Origin: a virus
Length of the DNA stretch: 64,000 bases
Reading direction: 5' to 3' (one strand)
IMG/VR virus record: IMGVR_UViG_3300025881_000008
Span: 32,001 to 96,000 of that record
Part shown: one piece after another, positions 2,833 through 33,211 of the stretch
How positions within the stretch are numbered: position 1 is the first letter of the stretch
Layout of the letters: every line of letters starts with the position of its first letter
The notes under the pieces: generated by a model
What the model was told of the DNA's origin: nothing
The model's input: only the letters and a program-made list of their open reading frames with translations
Database searches by the model: none
Translations under genes and position numbers: made by a program

Positions 2833-4041
2833 TTAAAATAATGCCGAAGCGTAAATTAGGTTAGTATCTAGTGTTTGGAGGCCGATGGCTGTCAGTACTC
2901 TGTTTAAAGGATCAATCATTGCCTTTTCAAATTGAGTATCGTAATCAACATGTGGCGCAATTTCATATGGATATTCATTTGGCATAAATGCGTAGACCTC
3001 ACTAATATTACCAATACAATTATAGATCTTTAGCTTTTCACCATTTTGAATGTGTTTATACTTATTCTTATACTTTTTATTATTATTTAAAATATAATTA
3101 TAGTAACCTGCTGCTTTTACGTTAGCTGGGCATTTTAGTCCAATCTGTAATTCTTTCTGATCGTCAATAATATATTGATCAATATTATTAGTTCTCTTAT
3201 TAAATGAAATATCATCAATATCTGCTAGCTTGAATTCCTTTTTACATTTTTTCATAAACTCAACCAGTTGTTGCAATTCTGTTGCCGTTGGTTGTATTTC
3301 TGATGTAAATAAAATTCTAAGACATTCTACTAATTTTTCTCTGGCAAATTTAGGAGTTGAAGACTGTATAGTATCAAAGCCGATGGTCTTTACTTTCTTA
3401 AGTGAAGGGTGCCTGTCAGTTACTTCTAGTTTATCATCCCATGCGATATTCTGAATGTACTTTTTCTTAGACATCCAAATACCATTATATGCTAAAGATT
3501 CAAGTTCAAATATAAGGAAGTTATCAGTGTTTCTTTTCTCTGCATATTTTTCCATACATTTACTAATATAATCTTTTAGTCTGAATGCATAGAACGCAAG
3601 AATAAACTCATCAATCTTCAGTTTCTTAGTTTCATCTGGCCATATAATAGATTCGTATAGATCTTGAAACTGTACGTAACATGAATCTGTATCAATGTAG
3701 ATTACCGCAGGTTTCTCAATTTTACCCTTTACTTTAATACCAAATTGTTCATGAACAGCAGTGTCTTTATGCCAGAAATCATTAACATACTTATTAAGAA
3801 TTATTTCTGAATAAAGAATAGCATTTTTACCCTGTTTGGTAATTGACTCAGCGATGTCAAGGTTAAAGAAGTGAAACCACTTGTTACCAAATGCACCGTA
3901 GATAGAGTTAAGAGTTAACTTAACCGCTTGCTCGTATGCAGTGTATTTGGCAGAAAGCTGCTTGTAGTGATCTACAAGCAGCTTCGCCTCATCATCTGTG
4001 AGTTGATCGATTGGTTTATTTTCTAACTCTTCGATTGTCAT
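2833..4041 (-). CDS. Family B DNA polymerase, C-terminal subunit (gp43B-like)
   Basis: Motif B KLTLNSIYG, motif C YIDTDS, KKKY motif; lacks exonuclease and motif A. Confidence 0.92.
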   Translation of the reverse strand: MTIEELENKPIDQLTDDEAKLLVDHYKQLSAKYTAYEQAVKLTLNSIYGAFGNKWFHFFNLDIAESITKQGKNAILYSEIILNKYVNDFWHKDTAVHEQFGIKVKGKIEKPAVIYIDTDSCYVQFQDLYESIIWPDETKKLKIDEFILAFYAFRLKDYISKCMEKYAEKRNTDNFLIFELESLAYNGIWMSKKKYIQNIAWDDKLEVTDRHPSLKKVKTIGFDTIQSSTPKFAREKLVECLRILFTSEIQPTATELQQLVEFMKKCKKEFKLADIDDISFNKRTNNIDQYIIDDQKELQIGLKCPANVKAAGYYNYILNNNKKYKNKYKHIQNGEKLKIYNCIGNISEVYAFMPNEYPYEIAPHVDYDTQFEKAMIDPLNRVLTAIGLQTLDTNLIYASALF

Positions 4042-4044
4042 CTA

Positions 4045-4788
4045 TTAGGCTGTTTGGCAAGTTGAAATTGTCAACAAAGTGTGTGAATCATTTGATTCGA
4101 ATACAACTTTGGAATCTGACACATAAACTGTTTGCTCTTCCTTGTCTAATAGATTCAAATACTTCTTGTAAACAGTAACTTTACCGTTACCATTTGTATC
4201 TGGCGTAAGCACTACGTTAAATGACTTACCATTTACATTGATCCCCGCAACATCAGATTTGATACCGAATGTCTCATCCTTGTCCAATGAGAATAGATTT
4301 TTAACTTTACCAATTGAGTGTGTGTCCAATTTAAAGTCAAACTGTGAATCGGTTCGTGCGAAAATCGCATCGCGTTGCTCTTGTGAGAGATCTTTAAAGC
4401 CTAATGATGGCTCAGAACAAGATAGTGTAATTTCCAGTTCGTCATTAAAAATACGAAGTGTAGAAGCTACAAACTCTTCGTCATTCTCGATGAATTCCAA
4501 CTCACCTTTAATAGCATCATGCTCAAAGTGCTTGATGGCTTCAATAACTCGATTACCTTCAAAGAAAGCAATTTTCATCTCCTTGTCAGTGTCAGGCCAT
4601 TCGCTTACTTGAAAAATGGTATCAGCTTGAATAGAGTGGTGTTTTACAGCATCTCGTTGTGGAAGATAAACTGTTGATTGGATTTGACCATCTTTAATTT
4701 TCATATAAATGAAAGAGTCAATAAGTTTAACACGATTGATAAACTCTGTTAATGCATGTTGATCAATGCGATCGATTTGTAATTTCAT
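4045..4788 (-). CDS. Sliding clamp, gp45-like
   Basis: 247 aa, acidic, two-fold alpha/beta repeat pattern, directly upstream of the polymerase subunit. Confidence 0.65.
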   Translation of the reverse strand: MKLQIDRIDQHALTEFINRVKLIDSFIYMKIKDGQIQSTVYLPQRDAVKHHSIQADTIFQVSEWPDTDKEMKIAFFEGNRVIEAIKHFEHDAIKGELEFIENDEEFVASTLRIFNDELEITLSCSEPSLGFKDLSQEQRDAIFARTDSQFDFKLDTHSIGKVKNLFSLDKDETFGIKSDVAGINVNGKSFNVVLTPDTNGNGKVTVYKKYLNLLDKEEQTVYVSDSKVVFESNDSHTLLTISTCQTA

Positions 4789-4820
4789 AAATTTATATTT
4801 TTAGATAATGATATTTGAAT

Positions 4821-4848
4821 ATTATACAGAGATCTGTGGAATAGTTTC
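4821..4848 (-). promoter_or_regulatory. Phage promoter GAAAC-N17-TATAAT for clamp and PolB-C
   Basis: - strand reads GAAAC TATTCCACAGATCTCTG TATAAT. Confidence 0.75.
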
Positions 4849-4862
4849 ATTAAAAATGAAGC

Positions 4863-4900
4863 AAAAAAAGGGCAGAGATAGTAGCGAACTTTCTCTGCCC
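4863..4900 (-). terminator. Intrinsic terminator after nrdA
   Basis: 9-bp stem GGGCAGAGA/TCTCTGCCC, 13-nt loop, followed by T7 on the - strand. Confidence 0.85.
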
Positions 4901-4950
4901 AACCCGTTAACTATAACGGTCCTAAGACGTGGTCTTTAAACCACACCTAA
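4863..4950 (-). ncRNA. Structured 3' element complementary to 23S rRNA helix 69-70
   Basis: + strand 4908-4926 TAACTATAACGGTCCTAAG = 23S nt 1911-1929 (E. coli numbering); 4881-4888 GTAGCGAA = nt 1930-1937; three tandem hairpins. Confidence 0.65.
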
Positions 4951-4951
4951 A

Positions 4952-6661
4952 TTATGCTTCGCAGCTTGCACATTCTAAAATATTTCTAGAAAATGATTGT
5001 GCTGAACTTTGACTAAATTGATAGTATAACGTTTTAACTCCTTGTTCATGTGCCTTTAAGTACAATTGATTGATATCTTTAGCAGAAACTGAAGGGTGAA
5101 TCATTAAATTAAGAGATTGAGACTGATCAATAAATTGTTGTCTTTGACCTGCTTGTAAAATTAATTCGCTTGGAGAGATTTCAATAAATGATTTAAAAAC
5201 TGCCCTTGTTGGAAAGTCTAGGTGTTGTACACTTCCATCTTTTTTCAAGATATCTTCCCAAACCGCAGGTGTATTTAAACCATATTTTTCTAATTCCTCT
5301 GTTAAGAATGGATTTTTGTAGATAGTTTTTGACTTAGCCAAATCTTTAATAAAATAATTAGATTTGATTGGTTCAATTCCCATACTTACAGCACCGTGAA
5401 TAAAAGAACTAGATTTAGTAGGTGCAATAGCAACTAATGTTGTATTAGCAAAACCTTTTCTAAGTGATCTATATCCTTTTTCGTCGTGGAGCCACATGGA
5501 AGCTGCATCAGTTTTTTCTTTAAGAGTTTTAAATATCTGGTAGTTTAATTGTTTTGCTTCCAAAGATTCAAATTCAATCAATTTAGATTGGAATAAAGAG
5601 TGGTAACCTAAAACACCAACGCCTAATGCTCTGTGTTGTTCTGCAAAACGGTGTGCTCTTGACATTCCTGGCATATTATATGACTTCTTAACGAATTCGT
5701 CCATAACTGCGTTTAAGAATAGAGTATAAGTCTCGATTGCGTCAGTGTCTTTTAATTCATCCCAATGTAGAAGATTAATAGAACCTAAACAACACACAAA
5801 TGAATTGAATGAATCTGTTGGTAATTGAATCTCACTACATAAATTAGATGCTGTGATTTCAAGACCTAGATCTTTATATGGTGAATTGTTATTTGTAGTA
5901 TCTTTAAACATAATGTATGGAAAACCAAACTCGTTACGTCTTTGGATAACTTTAGCCCATAATTTACGCTTGTCAGCATCTCCGGCTTTCATTTCTTCTA
6001 GCCATTGGTCAGTTACTGTAATACCATATTGAAGATTTTGAATTGGATTACCTTCTGTTCCCATATCTAAGAATTCAGATGCATCTGGGTGTTCAATTGG
6101 TAACCATGCTGCACATGCACCACGTCTAGCTTCTGATTGTTTACACACATCAACTGTAGTGTCATACATTCTTGCGTAGTGAACTGGACCATCTGCTGTT
6201 CCACCTGTAGAAATAGTAGCACCTCTTTCTCTAATATTACCTAAGAAAATTGAGGTTCCTCCGCCATATTTTGACATCATTCCAATTTCTCTACTTCCGT
6301 TCAAGATACTATCTAATGTGTCATCAACATTTGAACCATAACAACTGATTGGAAGTCCTTTGTCCTTTCCAAAGTTAATCCAAACCGGAGTAGACATGCT
6401 ATAAAAGCCTCTTGCCATGTAGTCTTCAAACTTCTTTGCAAAACCTTCAATCTTTAAATACTTTTCTGCGACATTTGCAATGTCTTTAATTCTTTGTTCT
6501 GGAGATTCTGTAATATAACCTCTTGATAAAAATAATCTACTTTCATCATTTAGCCAGTAATATTTTTCTCTGGTATTTATTAAATTTTCTTCTCTGTTCT
6601 CCGCGCGCGGAGTTTGTAAATCTTGCTCTTTTTCAGCAAGAACTTCACTGGCTTTTTCCAT
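4952..6661 (-). CDS. nrdA: Class I ribonucleotide reductase alpha subunit, no ATP-cone
   Basis: PISC, SNLCSEI, APTKSSS, KTLYY and C-terminal CxxC. Confidence 0.95.
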   Translation of the reverse strand: MEKASEVLAEKEQDLQTPRAENREENLINTREKYYWLNDESRLFLSRGYITESPEQRIKDIANVAEKYLKIEGFAKKFEDYMARGFYSMSTPVWINFGKDKGLPISCYGSNVDDTLDSILNGSREIGMMSKYGGGTSIFLGNIRERGATISTGGTADGPVHYARMYDTTVDVCKQSEARRGACAAWLPIEHPDASEFLDMGTEGNPIQNLQYGITVTDQWLEEMKAGDADKRKLWAKVIQRRNEFGFPYIMFKDTTNNNSPYKDLGLEITASNLCSEIQLPTDSFNSFVCCLGSINLLHWDELKDTDAIETYTLFLNAVMDEFVKKSYNMPGMSRAHRFAEQHRALGVGVLGYHSLFQSKLIEFESLEAKQLNYQIFKTLKEKTDAASMWLHDEKGYRSLRKGFANTTLVAIAPTKSSSFIHGAVSMGIEPIKSNYFIKDLAKSKTIYKNPFLTEELEKYGLNTPAVWEDILKKDGSVQHLDFPTRAVFKSFIEISPSELILQAGQRQQFIDQSQSLNLMIHPSVSAKDINQLYLKAHEQGVKTLYYQFSQSSAQSFSRNILECASCEA

Positions 6662-6686
6662 GTTGTGTGTTAAATATTTTTGTTAA

Positions 6687-7667
6687 TTAAAATAAATCGT
6701 CTTCGGTAATTGACTTGCTCTTCTTGTTATAGTCAACCTGCTTTTTATAGAAAAAATCACCCTCTTTAGTAGCTGTGATTTCTACATCGAACCATAGTGT
6801 TTTTTCTAGTTCGGTGAAATCAACATCAAATATTGGTTTCATTCCAATACGAGTTAGTGAATTATTAAATCTGTTTTGTATAAAATTCTTAATGGTATCC
6901 TTAGAAAGAAAGTCAAGCTCTCCTTTTTCAAAGATCCAATCAAGGATTTTAACTTCGGCTTCATATGCCTTTCTACACGCAGAATCAATAAGTTCTTCAA
7001 ACTCTTCATCAAACCATTCAGGGTTCTCTGCTTTAATTATATTGATTATTTCAGATCCAAAATTACCGTGAATTTCTTCTTCTTTAGATGTTGCCTCAAC
7101 TACATTTGAGATACCTTTGAATAGGTTTTTCTCTTTGTTGAAAGACATCATAATTAAGAATTGGCTAAATAAACTTACATGTTCAATAAATAATGAAAAT
7201 AGAAGTACTGATTTGGTGTACATTTTATCATCTCTACTTCTTGTACCGTCTAAATACTTTCTTAAATAAGCTATCCTGTCTTTGATAGCTGGAATTTCTA
7301 CAACATTTTGGAATTCTTTTTCCAAACCTAAAACTCTAAGTAATTGAGCGTATGCATCTTTGTGTCTTACTTCAGACTCTGCAAATGTCATACCAACATC
7401 ACCTACTTCGGTGATTGGCATTCTTTTATAAAGATCTGCCCAAAAAGTTTTAACATTAACTTCAATTTGAGCAATAGCTAACATCGCTCTCTTAATTACT
7501 TCTCTCTCTTGTTTAGAAATTTTTGTCTTGAAGTCGTCAATATCTGTGGTAAAATTAAATTCAGTGTGGATCCAGTATGAGTGTCTAATAGCGTCTTTAT
7601 AAGCTAATAGTTGTGGATATTCGTATGGTAGGATATTAACCCTTGGTGCAAAAATGTTCTTATTCAT
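6687..7667 (-). CDS. nrdB: Class I ribonucleotide reductase beta subunit
   Basis: QIEVNVK, ESEVRHKDAY, FIEHVSLF, KEEEIHG ligand motifs; DFF and C-terminal DDLF. Confidence 0.95.
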   Translation of the reverse strand: MNKNIFAPRVNILPYEYPQLLAYKDAIRHSYWIHTEFNFTTDIDDFKTKISKQEREVIKRAMLAIAQIEVNVKTFWADLYKRMPITEVGDVGMTFAESEVRHKDAYAQLLRVLGLEKEFQNVVEIPAIKDRIAYLRKYLDGTRSRDDKMYTKSVLLFSLFIEHVSLFSQFLIMMSFNKEKNLFKGISNVVEATSKEEEIHGNFGSEIINIIKAENPEWFDEEFEELIDSACRKAYEAEVKILDWIFEKGELDFLSKDTIKNFIQNRFNNSLTRIGMKPIFDVDFTELEKTLWFDVEITATKEGDFFYKKQVDYNKKSKSITEDDLF

Positions 7668-7690
7668 ACAGTTAGTTTATTTTAGTAATT

Positions 7691-7698
7691 TATATATC
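7691..7698 (-). promoter_or_regulatory. Putative late promoter GATATATA upstream of nrdB
   Basis: Motif recurs in about ten intergenic or gene-end positions; similar to the T4 late promoter TATAAATA. Confidence 0.55.
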
Positions 7699-7724
7699 GG
7701 TTAGTGGTTGAGGGTATTGGTAAT

Positions 7725-9128
7725 TTACAGTTTAAATTTTTTTTCAATTTCGTGTGCCTTCTCATAATATGAGTATGAGGTCTTTTTATAGTCTTTACGT
7801 TGAGCATATAAATCACTCAGAATTTTCTTAAGAATAGAGTCTTCTTTCTTAAAGACTACACCATTCTCACAAACGATTACCGACTCATCTTTTCGTCTTT
7901 CGTTAATATCTGCTTGTGGTATTTGTTCAACATAGGATTCGGGGGAAATATTAAATTGTCTCATAATAGATGGATATAGAGAGGCAAAGTCAAATGCACT
8001 TACTCCACTGTAGTATCCAACAATAGGTTGCTTTACAAATGCTCCTTCAAATTTACCATCTTTAAGAGAATCCGCTTTACCATACTCTACTCCAATTTTT
8101 TTATTTGTTTCAGCTAGCTTTCTGGCTAATAGTGATTCTGTAATTGCCACTGGTGATGAGGCTTTATAAAGAGGCATTCTAGTAATAGTGGCCAATGTTA
8201 ATAGAACTTCCATTGATCTTAATTGCTTGTCTATATAATAAACCAAACAGGAGTCAATTACGTTGTAGTAGACATATTTAGTAAAATCATTTTCATAAAG
8301 ATCTTGTAATGAACCTGTGTATTTAATTTTGGTAACATCTAAAACTGCACCTGACACAAAGTCTAATGAGTTAGATTCTTTTACCGCAACTGATCTGTCA
8401 TATTTGTCATATAATTGCATGTAATCTAAAATACCCATATGAAGAGGTCTACTATCATTTCTGTCAAGTGATCCAGTGATCGCCACATCAGTCAGGTCGA
8501 TCTGAAGTCTCTTGCAACGATTAACTATATACTGCCAGTCATAGTTGATAAAATTCCATCCAGTCATCATTGGGAACTTAGGTAAAAACTTATGCAAGAA
8601 TGTATATAACATATTGTACTCATTATCAAATTTATGATATGAGAATTCCCAATCTTGATCATAGTTCTTTAGGTGGGCATTAGTATCTTTCTCAATTTTA
8701 GCAATCTGCTCTGATGTTAAATCTTCAAGACCTAATACAATTGCTTTACGCTCAGGCGTGATGATCGAGAAGGTTAAGATACGTGACTTAGCCTCTTCTG
8801 GTTTTGGGAAACCATCAACGATTTCTGTTTCAATATCGACGAAATATGTTCGAGGCATATTGAATTCATAAATCTCTTCTTTATCTGCCGCTGGCAGGCT
8901 ATCCATAAAATAGAGTAGACTGAACTTATTAAATGACTTAGCGATACCTCTTTTTAGTGGGCGATTGTCCCAGTTTCTAAAAGTCTTATCCTTATATTTA
9001 TCTTTTTCTTCTGTAACTACCCAATTTTGGAATTGGTTTACAGTGTATCTTTTAAAGGAAACTTTACCCTCTTTGTCATAATAAGAGATGATAAGTTCCT
9101 TGTCAGTTTGTTCAATGTCTAATAGCAT
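7725..9128 (-). CDS. Family B DNA polymerase, N-terminal subunit (exonuclease and motif A; gp43A-like)
   Basis: ExoI DIET, ExoII GWNFINYD, ExoIII YNVID, motif A DFASLYPS; ends just after the RxxxKK fingers helix. Confidence 0.92.
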   Translation of the reverse strand: MLLDIEQTDKELIISYYDKEGKVSFKRYTVNQFQNWVVTEEKDKYKDKTFRNWDNRPLKRGIAKSFNKFSLLYFMDSLPAADKEEIYEFNMPRTYFVDIETEIVDGFPKPEEAKSRILTFSIITPERKAIVLGLEDLTSEQIAKIEKDTNAHLKNYDQDWEFSYHKFDNEYNMLYTFLHKFLPKFPMMTGWNFINYDWQYIVNRCKRLQIDLTDVAITGSLDRNDSRPLHMGILDYMQLYDKYDRSVAVKESNSLDFVSGAVLDVTKIKYTGSLQDLYENDFTKYVYYNVIDSCLVYYIDKQLRSMEVLLTLATITRMPLYKASSPVAITESLLARKLAETNKKIGVEYGKADSLKDGKFEGAFVKQPIVGYYSGVSAFDFASLYPSIMRQFNISPESYVEQIPQADINERRKDESVIVCENGVVFKKEDSILKKILSDLYAQRKDYKKTSYSYYEKAHEIEKKFKL

Positions 9129-31954: not shown

Positions 31955-33211
31955 TTATTCTTGAATTCCGTTAAAACCATCGTCTTTACCAAGTACGTCC
32001 TCATCCATTACGTTATGTACTAGGATTCCGCTTGCAAAATATACATCTTTATTTTCAACATTAAATGCATAAGTCGTAAAAGGCGCTTCTGTCTGAACCA
32101 ATACGTTAGAGTTTACTAATACCCATTCATTGTTTTGATTTAACATACTATCACCAACTAAGACATCTTTAATTACTTTAAATACAACTATGTCGTCAGA
32201 TGTTTTAACTAAAACTGGGTGTTCTAACGTAAGTTGTAGTTCTCCATTGTTTATGTCATAATATGAAGAATAAGTATCTACATATATGTCATTTACCACA
32301 GCACTTGTATATTCATCAGAATAGTCAGCGGCTGAAATATTAAACTCTCTGTATATTGTTTCTACATCGCTTAAGCCGTTAATAGCCAACGATAACAGTG
32401 CATCTCCTAATACAATATCCTCTACTTTTTTAGTTTCTCCATTCGCTAAAGTAAGTAAATCACCAGCTAAGTGACATCCACCACCACCGGTACCGCCACC
32501 GCCGGTGTCCACATAAGTTGTTGCTGTCGGGAATGGTGTTGGTGTTGGGTTTATAATTTCTTCAGAAGTTGGGCCCATAATTTCTCCAGAATCAGATTCG
32601 AGTACACAGTACCATGTGTCGCTTGTGCCATAGGGTGCAATTACAGTACAGTCAACATTCGTATTATTTATAGGTGAAAAAGTTTTAGTAAACCTATAAG
32701 TTCCATTAAATACATTAGGGTCTATTGTTACATTTGGACCAAATACGTTTGTTCCATCAACGCCCTCAGTATTAAAATCACTAGGTGCCACTGGACTAGT
32801 CTCACCATCAGCTACAATTGTATACGCTACATCAGTACTAAATGTCTGAGGTGTAAATACAAATCTATTACCAGACGTTGTATTAGTTGCGAACGTGAAC
32901 GCTGGGGTCGGTACAACCGGAGTTGCAGTCGGTACAACCGGAGTTGCAGTCGGTGAAGCCGGAGTTGCAGTCGGTGTTATTACCGTACCACCCGCTTGAG
33001 AAACTGATATAGTATCAGTAGTAGTTGTATTACTGTGCCTAACCGTTAACGTGGCAGATCTGGATGTACCAGAATTAGCCGCCACAGTAATAATCCAATC
33101 ATTACTAGTACCTACTTGATTTATGGTAATCCAGCTAGGCGGAGTATCCCACGAATAGGATGTGCCTAAAGGTGTGATATTTACCGTTCTTGTATAATCG
33201 TTTGCTGCCAT
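31955..33211 (-). CDS. BACON-domain protein with Pro/Thr linkers and a C-terminal Hint domain
   Basis: SWITI...TVAANSGTSRSATLTV...ISVSQ (BACON); Hint from Cys246 (CHLAGD) via LTLEHP to LVHN400. Confidence 0.85.
   Translation of the reverse strand: MAANDYTRTVNITPLGTSYSWDTPPSWITINQVGTSNDWIITVAANSGTSRSATLTVRHSNTTTTDTISVSQAGGTVITPTATPASPTATPVVPTATPVVPTPAFTFATNTTSGNRFVFTPQTFSTDVAYTIVADGETSPVAPSDFNTEGVDGTNVFGPNVTIDPNVFNGTYRFTKTFSPINNTNVDCTVIAPYGTSDTWYCVLESDSGEIMGPTSEEIINPTPTPFPTATTYVDTGGGGTGGGGCHLAGDLLTLANGETKKVEDIVLGDALLSLAINGLSDVETIYREFNISAADYSDEYTSAVVNDIYVDTYSSYYDINNGELQLTLEHPVLVKTSDDIVVFKVIKDVLVGDSMLNQNNEWVLVNSNVLVQTEAPFTTYAFNVENKDVYFASGILVHNVMDEDVLGKDDGFNGIQE
32907..32975. repeat. 21-bp coding tandem repeat (PTATPVV), about 3 copies
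   Basis: gtcggtacaaccggagttgca repeated. Confidence 0.85.

Follow-up and report, generated by a model that had tools for sequence, protein, structure and literature searches.

A structured phage RNA family, most likely directed against 23S rRNA, at the 3′ end of an nrdB-nrdA transcript

Introduction

Small RNAs of the CpxQ/SroC type lie in 3′ untranslated regions, on the coding strand and directly after a stop codon; they share the hairpin-plus-U-run terminator of the operon and carry short conserved bases for pairing with another RNA. The element described here, found after the ribonucleotide reductase genes of a marine phage, resembles them in all these respects, its conserved bases being likewise presumed to pair with another RNA. 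It differs from them in that these bases complement nucleotides (nt) 1911–1937 of 23S rRNA and not an mRNA, in that the match (19 + 8 nt) is longer than the usual seed and comes as two blocks in swapped order, and in that the element is phage-borne and spread over many phage lineages.

The antisense RNAs of the CopA/CopT, RNA I/RNA II and Sok/hok systems present a recognition block in a hairpin loop, as does the element with one of its two blocks (B′), while its other block, single-stranded in part, could lengthen the duplex and the UUCG of the loop fits the YUNR pattern. However, those RNAs lie opposite their own target gene, whereas the element is far from its presumed target, which would be a stable structural RNA encoded in a different genome; its flanks are nrdA and an open reading frame, ORF247, and no rRNA gene. 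A further likeness, of geometry only, is with the EBS2/EBS1 sequences of group II introns, which are also two blocks, at least one of them in a terminal loop, that pair with adjoining target segments and stand in the same 5′-to-3′ order as their targets, i.e. ‘permuted’ with respect to a simple antisense RNA; unlike the introns, the element, of about 88 nt, has neither intron domains nor a reverse transcriptase. The I-CeuI site of 23S rDNA covers the same stretch (nt 1911–1937), but is contiguous double-stranded DNA, whereas the halves of the element are reversed, 19 nt apart, strand-specific and covary as RNA.

Phages act on ribosomes through proteins. RNAs that hold rRNA or a ribosomal subunit by pairing or mimicry are exemplified by the calicivirus TURBS (18S), plant-virus 3′ elements (60S) and U3 snoRNA, the viral ones among them also sitting in untranslated regions. 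They belong to another domain of life, involve other rRNA sites and bear no sequence or structural relationship to the element, and we know of no bacterial or phage counterpart.

The element lies in a window of 64,000 nucleotides (positions 32,001 to 96,000 of the IMG/VR record IMGVR_UViG_3300025881_000008; positions below are those of the window), in which it was first noticed by a model that had only the letters and their open reading frames (the sequence-only reading). That reading was aware of no description of such an element, and this is borne out in Rfam 15 and in full-text literature searches: Rfam 15 gave no match in the whole window, the best score within 4780–4970 being 18.5 bits against a threshold of 50, and the literature on the sequence, on phage RNAs complementary to 23S rRNA and on helix 69 (H69) yielded only uses of I-CeuI, probes and unrelated work. 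As judged from the comparison of many sequences, the element represents a real, conserved and previously undescribed family of structured phage RNAs, absent from Rfam, and is most likely an anti-23S rRNA RNA. Its architecture, that of a terminator-sharing small RNA with a loop-presented block, is known; what is new is the class of target, the permuted design with two blocks and the spread among phages.

The locus

All the genes found in the ORF list between positions 1 and 10,500 lie on the − strand. In the direction of transcription, the N-terminal part of a family B DNA polymerase (7725–9128; the exonuclease and the start of the polymerase domain) is followed by nrdB, for the small subunit of ribonucleotide reductase (6687–7667), which immediately precedes nrdA, for the large subunit of the class I enzyme (4952–6661; PF02867, E 4.5e-94; phrog_84, E 3.9e-138), by ORF247 (4045–4788) and by the C-terminal part of the polymerase (2833–4041; the rest of the polymerase domain). 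The polymerase is split over two genes (2833–9128), with nrdB, nrdA, the RNA element and ORF247 between the halves, and separate PHROG families exist for such halves (phrog_2062 and phrog_1918). The phage has no close cultured relative, its NrdA being at most 53% identical to that of any cultured phage.

The spacer between nrdA and ORF247 spans 163 nt and carries the RNA element, the nrdA stop codon (4952–4954, −) standing 2 nt ahead of the first hairpin. A promoter-like site for ORF247, ATGAAA-18-TATAAT (10/12; 4821–4850, −), lies outside the RNA and sets the 3′ limit of the unit; the GAAAC...TATAAT before ORF247 is conserved in relatives. ORF247 belongs to no Pfam family and has a single, weak PHROG match of unknown function, for which reasons its identification as a homing endonuclease was dropped; by eye, its N-terminus looks similar to that of T4 gp45-type sliding clamps. 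Searches with Pfam and PHROG profiles revealed no endonuclease domain in either adjoining gene, nrdA or ORF247.

Parts and fold of the RNA element

On the + strand, TAACTATAACGGTCCTAAG (4908–4926) corresponds to 23S nt 1911–1929 and GTAGCGAA (4881–4888) to nt 1930–1937. The sequence-only reading had described the spacer after nrdA letter for letter, and its 23S numbering is right, the 19-mer beginning at nt 1911 of E. coli rrlH; its statement that the transcript is antisense to 23S rRNA, with the halves swapped, also holds, all local genes being on the − strand. In the RNA, the two complements, A′ and B′, are 19 nt apart, in reversed order with respect to plain antisense.

The last ~88 nt of the nrdB-nrdA transcript (4950 to 4863, −) make up one copy of a widespread phage RNA family. 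In the minimum free energy (MFE) fold, the element RNA forms three hairpins followed by seven U. The energy of the 93-nt unit, −38.1 kcal/mol, corresponds to z = −5.9 with respect to shuffles, and G-U pairs favour the fold of the − strand (−38.1 versus −32.7 kcal/mol for the complement). Hairpin 1, AGGUGUGGU/ACCACGUCU (4922–4950, −), includes in its 3′ strand CU, the first bases of A′. Segment A′, CUUAGGACCGUUAUAGUUA (4908–4926, −), the exact complement of 23S nt 1911–1929, begins at the foot of hairpin 1, continues as an unpaired UAGGA and ends within hairpin 2, CCGUUA-UAGU-UAACGG (4904–4919, −), itself the complement of H69. Hairpin 3 (4870–4900, −) is the terminator, with a G+C-rich stem of 9 bp, GGGCAGAGA/UCUCUGCCC, and a 13-nt loop, which exceeds the limit of 8 nt of a simple terminator scanner, so that the scanner does not call it. 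Both in the window and in relatives, the loop holds B′, UUCGCUAC (4881–4888, −), the complement of 23S nt 1930–1937. The run of seven U (4863–4869, −) ends the nrdBA transcript and occupies the same relative position in relatives. Hairpin 1 and the terminator with B′ in its loop had been recognized at first sight; hairpin 2 (4919–4904) had not been named.

Conservation as a structured RNA

The contig search and covariance model that had been suggested for this element recovered a family in which all three hairpins covary. The model was first made from 19 relatives, and 61 hits, 29 of them distinct, then served for realignment; MAFFT alone had misaligned hairpin 3, RNAalifold then detecting hairpin 2 alone, hence the realignment. 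Among the 29 distinct relatives, 17 of the 23 pairs of the three hairpins show changes on both sides, including 7 of 9 pairs in hairpin 1 and all 8 modelled pairs in hairpin 3. Paired cells amount to 83.9%, compared with 67.8% in column shuffles and 39–50% when the partners are slid by 1–3 columns, and the covariation score of 0.432 (0.176 in shuffles) was reached by none of 500 shuffles. A covariance alignment is fitted to the structure and favours covariation, but the slid controls and the raw sequences agree with these figures.

The stems, spacers and flanks vary among homologous loci, in which UUAGGACCG shows little or no change. The columns free of any change are UUAGG-CCG, the GUU of the hairpin 2 loop and, among the 19 relatives aligned, UCGCUAC. 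The bases of A′ and B′ are, therefore, the invariant ones, whereas a failure of homologues to conserve the complementary bases had been named at the outset as grounds for giving up the rRNA connection.

Hairpin 2 occurs in compensatory forms (CCGUGG/UCACGG, CCGGGA/UCUCGG, CCGAGA/UCUCGG and CCGAAA/UUUCGG) which, in several relatives, abolish the complementarity to nt 1911–1919 and retain the GUU loop; in other branches, it reads GUUAUG/CAUAAC or UAUAGC-UUCG-GCUAUA. Since these changes break the match to nt 1911–1919, the constant target is nt 1920–1937 and not the H69 loop. These nucleotides comprise the 3′ strand of H69, the junction and the adjoining strand towards H70. Of the target first proposed, H69-H70, nt 1920–1937 have stood, and the loop and 5′ strand of H69 (nt 1911–1919) have been lost in several relatives.

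Distribution among phages

The exact 19-mer is present in 30 IMG/VR contigs, in 29 of which it lies in non-rRNA sequence, in at least six unrelated contexts, and two 14-mer scans added many more contexts; about 16 of the 59 clusters obtained with the 14-mer anchors lie inside ORFs, represent chance hits and were removed before the strand counts given below. The homologous spacer was also found, by way of the ORF247 protein, in relatives whose ORF247 is 72–96% identical. Across phages, the G+C content of the element ranges from about 31 to 55%.

Whole-region DNA searches against GenBank phages gave no match. Nevertheless, five cultured Vibrio phages (PWH3a-P1, qdvp001, vB_VpaM_R16F, vB_VibM_10AMN and P018-4) carry the element as an intergenic block of ~110 nt on the gene strand, with A′ (one change) and B′; these copies were recovered only by a 31-nt query at E up to 10, among true rRNA contaminants. 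In two of these phages, a tRNA-Arg gene lies just downstream on the same strand, i.e. a tRNA-Arg(UCU) directly 3′ of the element in vB_VpaM_R16F (L374:86-160) and vB_VibM_10AMN (L375:81-157). The R16F record places tRNAs there on the opposite strand, which ARAGORN does not confirm. In the L176 cluster (with L189, L204, L210 and about 25 related contigs), the element reads GGAAUUC-CUUAGGACCGUUAUAGGYG, with a strong terminator at once after; in L189, it follows a gene for a small HNH endonuclease.

A scan of bacterial genomes for prophage copies returned 89 matches, 87 of which are real 23S genes with a variant H69 stem; the non-rRNA matches were only L334 and L347. The 23S genes in question (L284-L372) show that, in Dojkabacteria and Saccharibacteria (candidate phyla radiation) and some Mollicutes, the base before the UAAC of H69 is not G, and that GUAAUAC replaces GAAAUUC after GGUAGC. 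Genuine 23S sequence surrounds the 19-mer also in two phage records, the ‘viral’ IMGVR_UViG_2775507074_000001 (L028) and Paenibacillus phage Pd_22F (L071; MZ092003.1, about 83.1 kb), probably as host DNA or an assembly join.

In one study, three marine metatranscriptome runs yielded contigs that cover the element, although contigs of RNA libraries can derive from DNA; a fourth run, from a different study, did not cover it. Being assembled contigs, they carry no information on transcript ends, strand or level, and the higher contig depth over 4640–4948 comes from contigs of related strains and is no measure of abundance.

Complementarity to 23S rRNA

That the 19-mer match exceeds chance, as estimated at first, is borne out: with up to three mismatches allowed, 0.04 chance matches are expected in the window, and the next-longest exact match of the 104-kb record to E. 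coli 16S, 23S and 5S rRNA, on both strands, is 14 nt, at the level of shuffles (13–14 nt). The 104-kb record contains no further anti-rRNA element above shuffle level and, by the covariance model, a single copy of the present one.

Across lineages, the complementarity falls within nt 1904–1942, but takes different forms. The permuted A′...B′ arrangement is found in at least 11 clusters. Elsewhere, the complement is contiguous, to nt 1912–1936 or, at eight distinct sites, to nt 1911–1940 with G1930 changed (G-to-A) to give a would-be G-U pair; or it covers nt 1916–1929, then 1904–1914, then 1929–1936; or it consists of nt 1915–1929 plus GAAUUCC (GGAAUUC ahead in the RNA; compare nt 1935–1942). 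The complement of GTAGCGA or TAGCGAA occurs in 15 of 43 intergenic clusters, in four of them contiguous with A′, compared with 0.38 clusters per 23S 7-mer as background, and no comparable peak is seen in the sense-strand control on the 43 clusters. That different lineages keep different extents of the match, contiguous or permuted, points to selection on pairing with 23S rRNA, and selection for rRNA complementarity appears to be the simplest reading of these alignments. For naked RNA, the hybrid with nt 1895–1950 is predicted to be favoured by −14.6 kcal/mol over the separate folds (shuffles −6.0 ± 3.0).

Substitutions within the complement bear on the same question in both directions. Isolated ones are wobble-compatible at 15 of 21 distinct sites but in only 4 of 9 types of change, which is at most weakly favourable, and the C1925-to-U variants would mismatch 23S rRNA. 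A recurrent U1926-to-C variant, present also in the cultured Vibrio phages, puts G opposite U in the RNA (a G-U pair); it matches no 23S gene among 185,579 species genomes and, thus, is not an adaptation to the host. The U1926-to-C form of A′, CCUUGGGACC (L070, L097, L149, L138 and L168), is also the exact complement of 23S nt 2535–2544, GGUCCCAAGG, perhaps only because the two rRNA stretches happen to be alike.

Over the family as a whole, complementarity to further rRNA sites does not exceed background, being equal to that of the sense-strand control, with the exception of a GGCUGCU loop in four clusters (L197, L198, L253 and L259). These have an extra hairpin with a covarying stem, the loop of which, with its closing bases, complements 16S nt 517–528 over 10–11 nt; several members of this branch end in AAGUGAGC. 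The loop may be a second anti-rRNA block, aimed at the 530-loop region of 16S rRNA, or a match that chance may produce for a loop of 7 nt. What looked like a fifth case (L279) is located within an ORF of the opposite strand and was not retained.

A proposed mode of action

That the RNA pairs with 23S rRNA in some form, be it the one set out here, a device acting in cis or a guide, is in our estimate probable. On balance, and with a slight inclination rather than conviction, we favour a family that acts by base-pairing with host 23S rRNA at nt ~1911–1937, and that would likely block or divert 50S maturation or subunit joining; to the fuller statement, that a small RNA of many unrelated phages may pair with H69-H70 in nascent or free large subunits and so control their maturation or joining, we give even credence.

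The first contact with 23S rRNA would be made by B′ in the loop of hairpin 3, with its YUNR-like UUCG, and, with the opening of hairpins 1 and 2, A′ would lengthen the pairing. The blocks could pair in their swapped order, as far as geometry goes, were the 9-bp stem of hairpin 3 to fold back beside the A′ duplex. In the mature 50S subunit, nt 1920–1937 are mostly paired or buried, and H68-H71 are among the last parts to settle during assembly, so that nascent 23S rRNA, a late pre-50S particle with H68-H71 not yet docked or the free 50S subunit would be the likeliest substrate; the likely effect would be to block or divert 50S maturation or the joining of subunits through bridge B2a. The RNA would act in trans, or independently of the upstream gene, as the 3′ end of the mRNA or as a piece released from it. 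In the lineage of the window, its link with nrdBA would fit a supply of ribonucleotides from rejected rRNA, although this link is absent in other lineages.

Several points speak against this mode of action. The predicted fold sequesters much of A′ in hairpins 1 and 2 and leaves UAGGA alone free; the stretch of 23S rRNA aimed at is for the most part structured in mature subunits; the order of A′ and B′ precludes one continuous duplex, and the targets overlap by 2–3 nt in some lineages; and the phage itself needs ribosomes, the gain for it being not obvious.

Genomic context and action in cis or in trans

Among the intergenic clusters, the upstream gene lies on the anti-23S strand in 27 cases and on the other in 3, and the downstream gene in 27 and 5, respectively. 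In the anti-23S orientation, 20 clusters have a hairpin of −14 kcal/mol or better that abuts a U-run 3′ of the motif, mostly 42–64 nt downstream; in the opposite orientation, there are 3. The earlier suggestion of a decoy for an H69-binding protein or nuclease is not supported by this bias, in that a decoy would be expected to imitate the sense strand, and members of the family are nearly always antisense.

A device acting in cis, i.e. one in the 3′ untranslated region that pairs with the 50S subunit to retain it at the 3′ end of its own mRNA, for re-use of the subunit or for protection from 3′ exonucleases, would be comparable to the plant-virus 3′ elements that bind the large subunit. We consider it unlikely, although, in 17 of 33 representative loci, the motif follows the stop codon of a same-strand ORF at 3–35 nt and several of these ORFs encode abundant products (capsid protein, ribonucleotide reductase). 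The distance from stop codon to motif is not fixed, spanning 3–97 nt overall; there is one copy per genome, though many genes are highly expressed; some copies are upstream of tRNA genes; and one copy, next to a Q gene that precedes it, belongs to a short unit that has its own promoter-like site. In the latter case, the lambdoid contig L017, the promoter-like site (10/12) directly follows the Q gene and, with a terminator, delimits a predicted RNA of ~105 nt with A′ in its 3′ part; the motif unit (L017:1397-1541) stands where lambda has its 6S leader RNA. The genes that precede the element are unrelated to one another (nrdA and those for a capsid protein, dCMP deaminase, an HNH protein, DUF proteins and the Q antiterminator). 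In phages closely related to that of the window, the element remains at the 3′ end of nrdA even where other genes have been inserted before ORF247, and in a relative whose upstream gene is another one, the place is taken by a plain terminator. As far as gene order can tell, the context argues for an action in trans, or at least independent of the upstream gene.

Other explanations

Pairing could also serve to direct a nuclease, a ligase or a modifying enzyme, of the host or of the phage, to 23S rRNA or to the sense strand of rDNA, for instance to cut nascent rRNA and thereby supply nucleotides for the synthesis of phage DNA. Such a guide would account for two short recognition blocks that flank one target point (1929/1930), one of them in a loop, and for the link, in this lineage, to nrdBA, which converts ribonucleotides to deoxyribonucleotides. 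It is, however, distinctly unlikely in view of the lack of a consistently adjacent partner gene, the neighbours being unrelated, and of the shifts and overlaps of the junction between the blocks among lineages; furthermore, the contiguous and the permuted forms would give an enzyme very different substrates. The hammerhead, the external guide sequences of RNase P, the H/ACA guides and the bridge RNAs were set aside by arm order alone; their arms either stand in the usual antisense order or pair with both strands of the DNA.

Very unlikely, in our judgement, is a structured RNA or terminator to which a protein binds and which at no time pairs with rRNA; the complementarity would then be the relic of an ancient captured fragment of antisense rDNA, kept because its bases are read by the protein. 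The compensatory changes that keep hairpin 2 even where they undo the rRNA match, and the partial burial of A′ in the fold, are what such an RNA would lead one to expect; it fails to explain why lineages extend the match in different directions and arrangements, and why the fixed bases are the complement of universally conserved rRNA in elements of such diverse G+C content.

A feature of the DNA (an I-CeuI-type site or decoy, the footprint of an rDNA intron or endonuclease gene, or a chimera with host rDNA) is scarcely credible: the 19-mer is the left part of the I-CeuI site, ribonucleotide reductase genes are hot spots for homing endonucleases and an HNH gene precedes the element in one branch of the family, but the site is split and permuted here, with no contiguous copy, and is broken further by the hairpin 2 variants that disrupt nt 1911–1919, neither the bias towards the transcribed strand nor the strand-specific G-U pairs are expected of a DNA site, nrdA and ORF247 are devoid of endonuclease domains, and the element, with flanks that are not rRNA, is present in many independent assemblies and in cultured phages. 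These assemblies, phages and flanks also rule out an assembly chimera or a vector or I-CeuI linker artefact, the danger of which had been raised with the first description and which is excluded by recurrence in independent IMG/VR contigs. Captured genuine 23S sequence was rejected, since only one (L028) of the 30 viral contigs with the 19-mer continues as 23S, and a group I intron boundary was dropped, the 19-mer ending at nt 1929 and not at 1917, 1923, 1925 or 1931, which are 23S insertion sites of such introns. We thus reject a homing-endonuclease site, captured rRNA and a chimeric assembly alike.

Implications

Even if the RNA did not bind rRNA, the family would be a large structured phage RNA family missing from Rfam, and its carriage by five cultured Vibrio phages makes the hypothesis of pairing with 23S rRNA directly testable. 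The stretch concerned, nt 1911–1937, overlaps bridge B2a and the region that release and recycling factors contact. Synthetic antisense oligomers against H69 have been reported to inhibit translation, so that a natural version would be of interest for the design of antibacterial antisense agents.

If the proposal is true, a phage RNA that holds rRNA through base pairs would give phages a new means of controlling the host and would be the first natural trans-acting bacterial RNA aimed at 23S rRNA known to us. Its target being invariant, such a device would work in any bacterial host, which would explain the spread of the family across phages of different base compositions.
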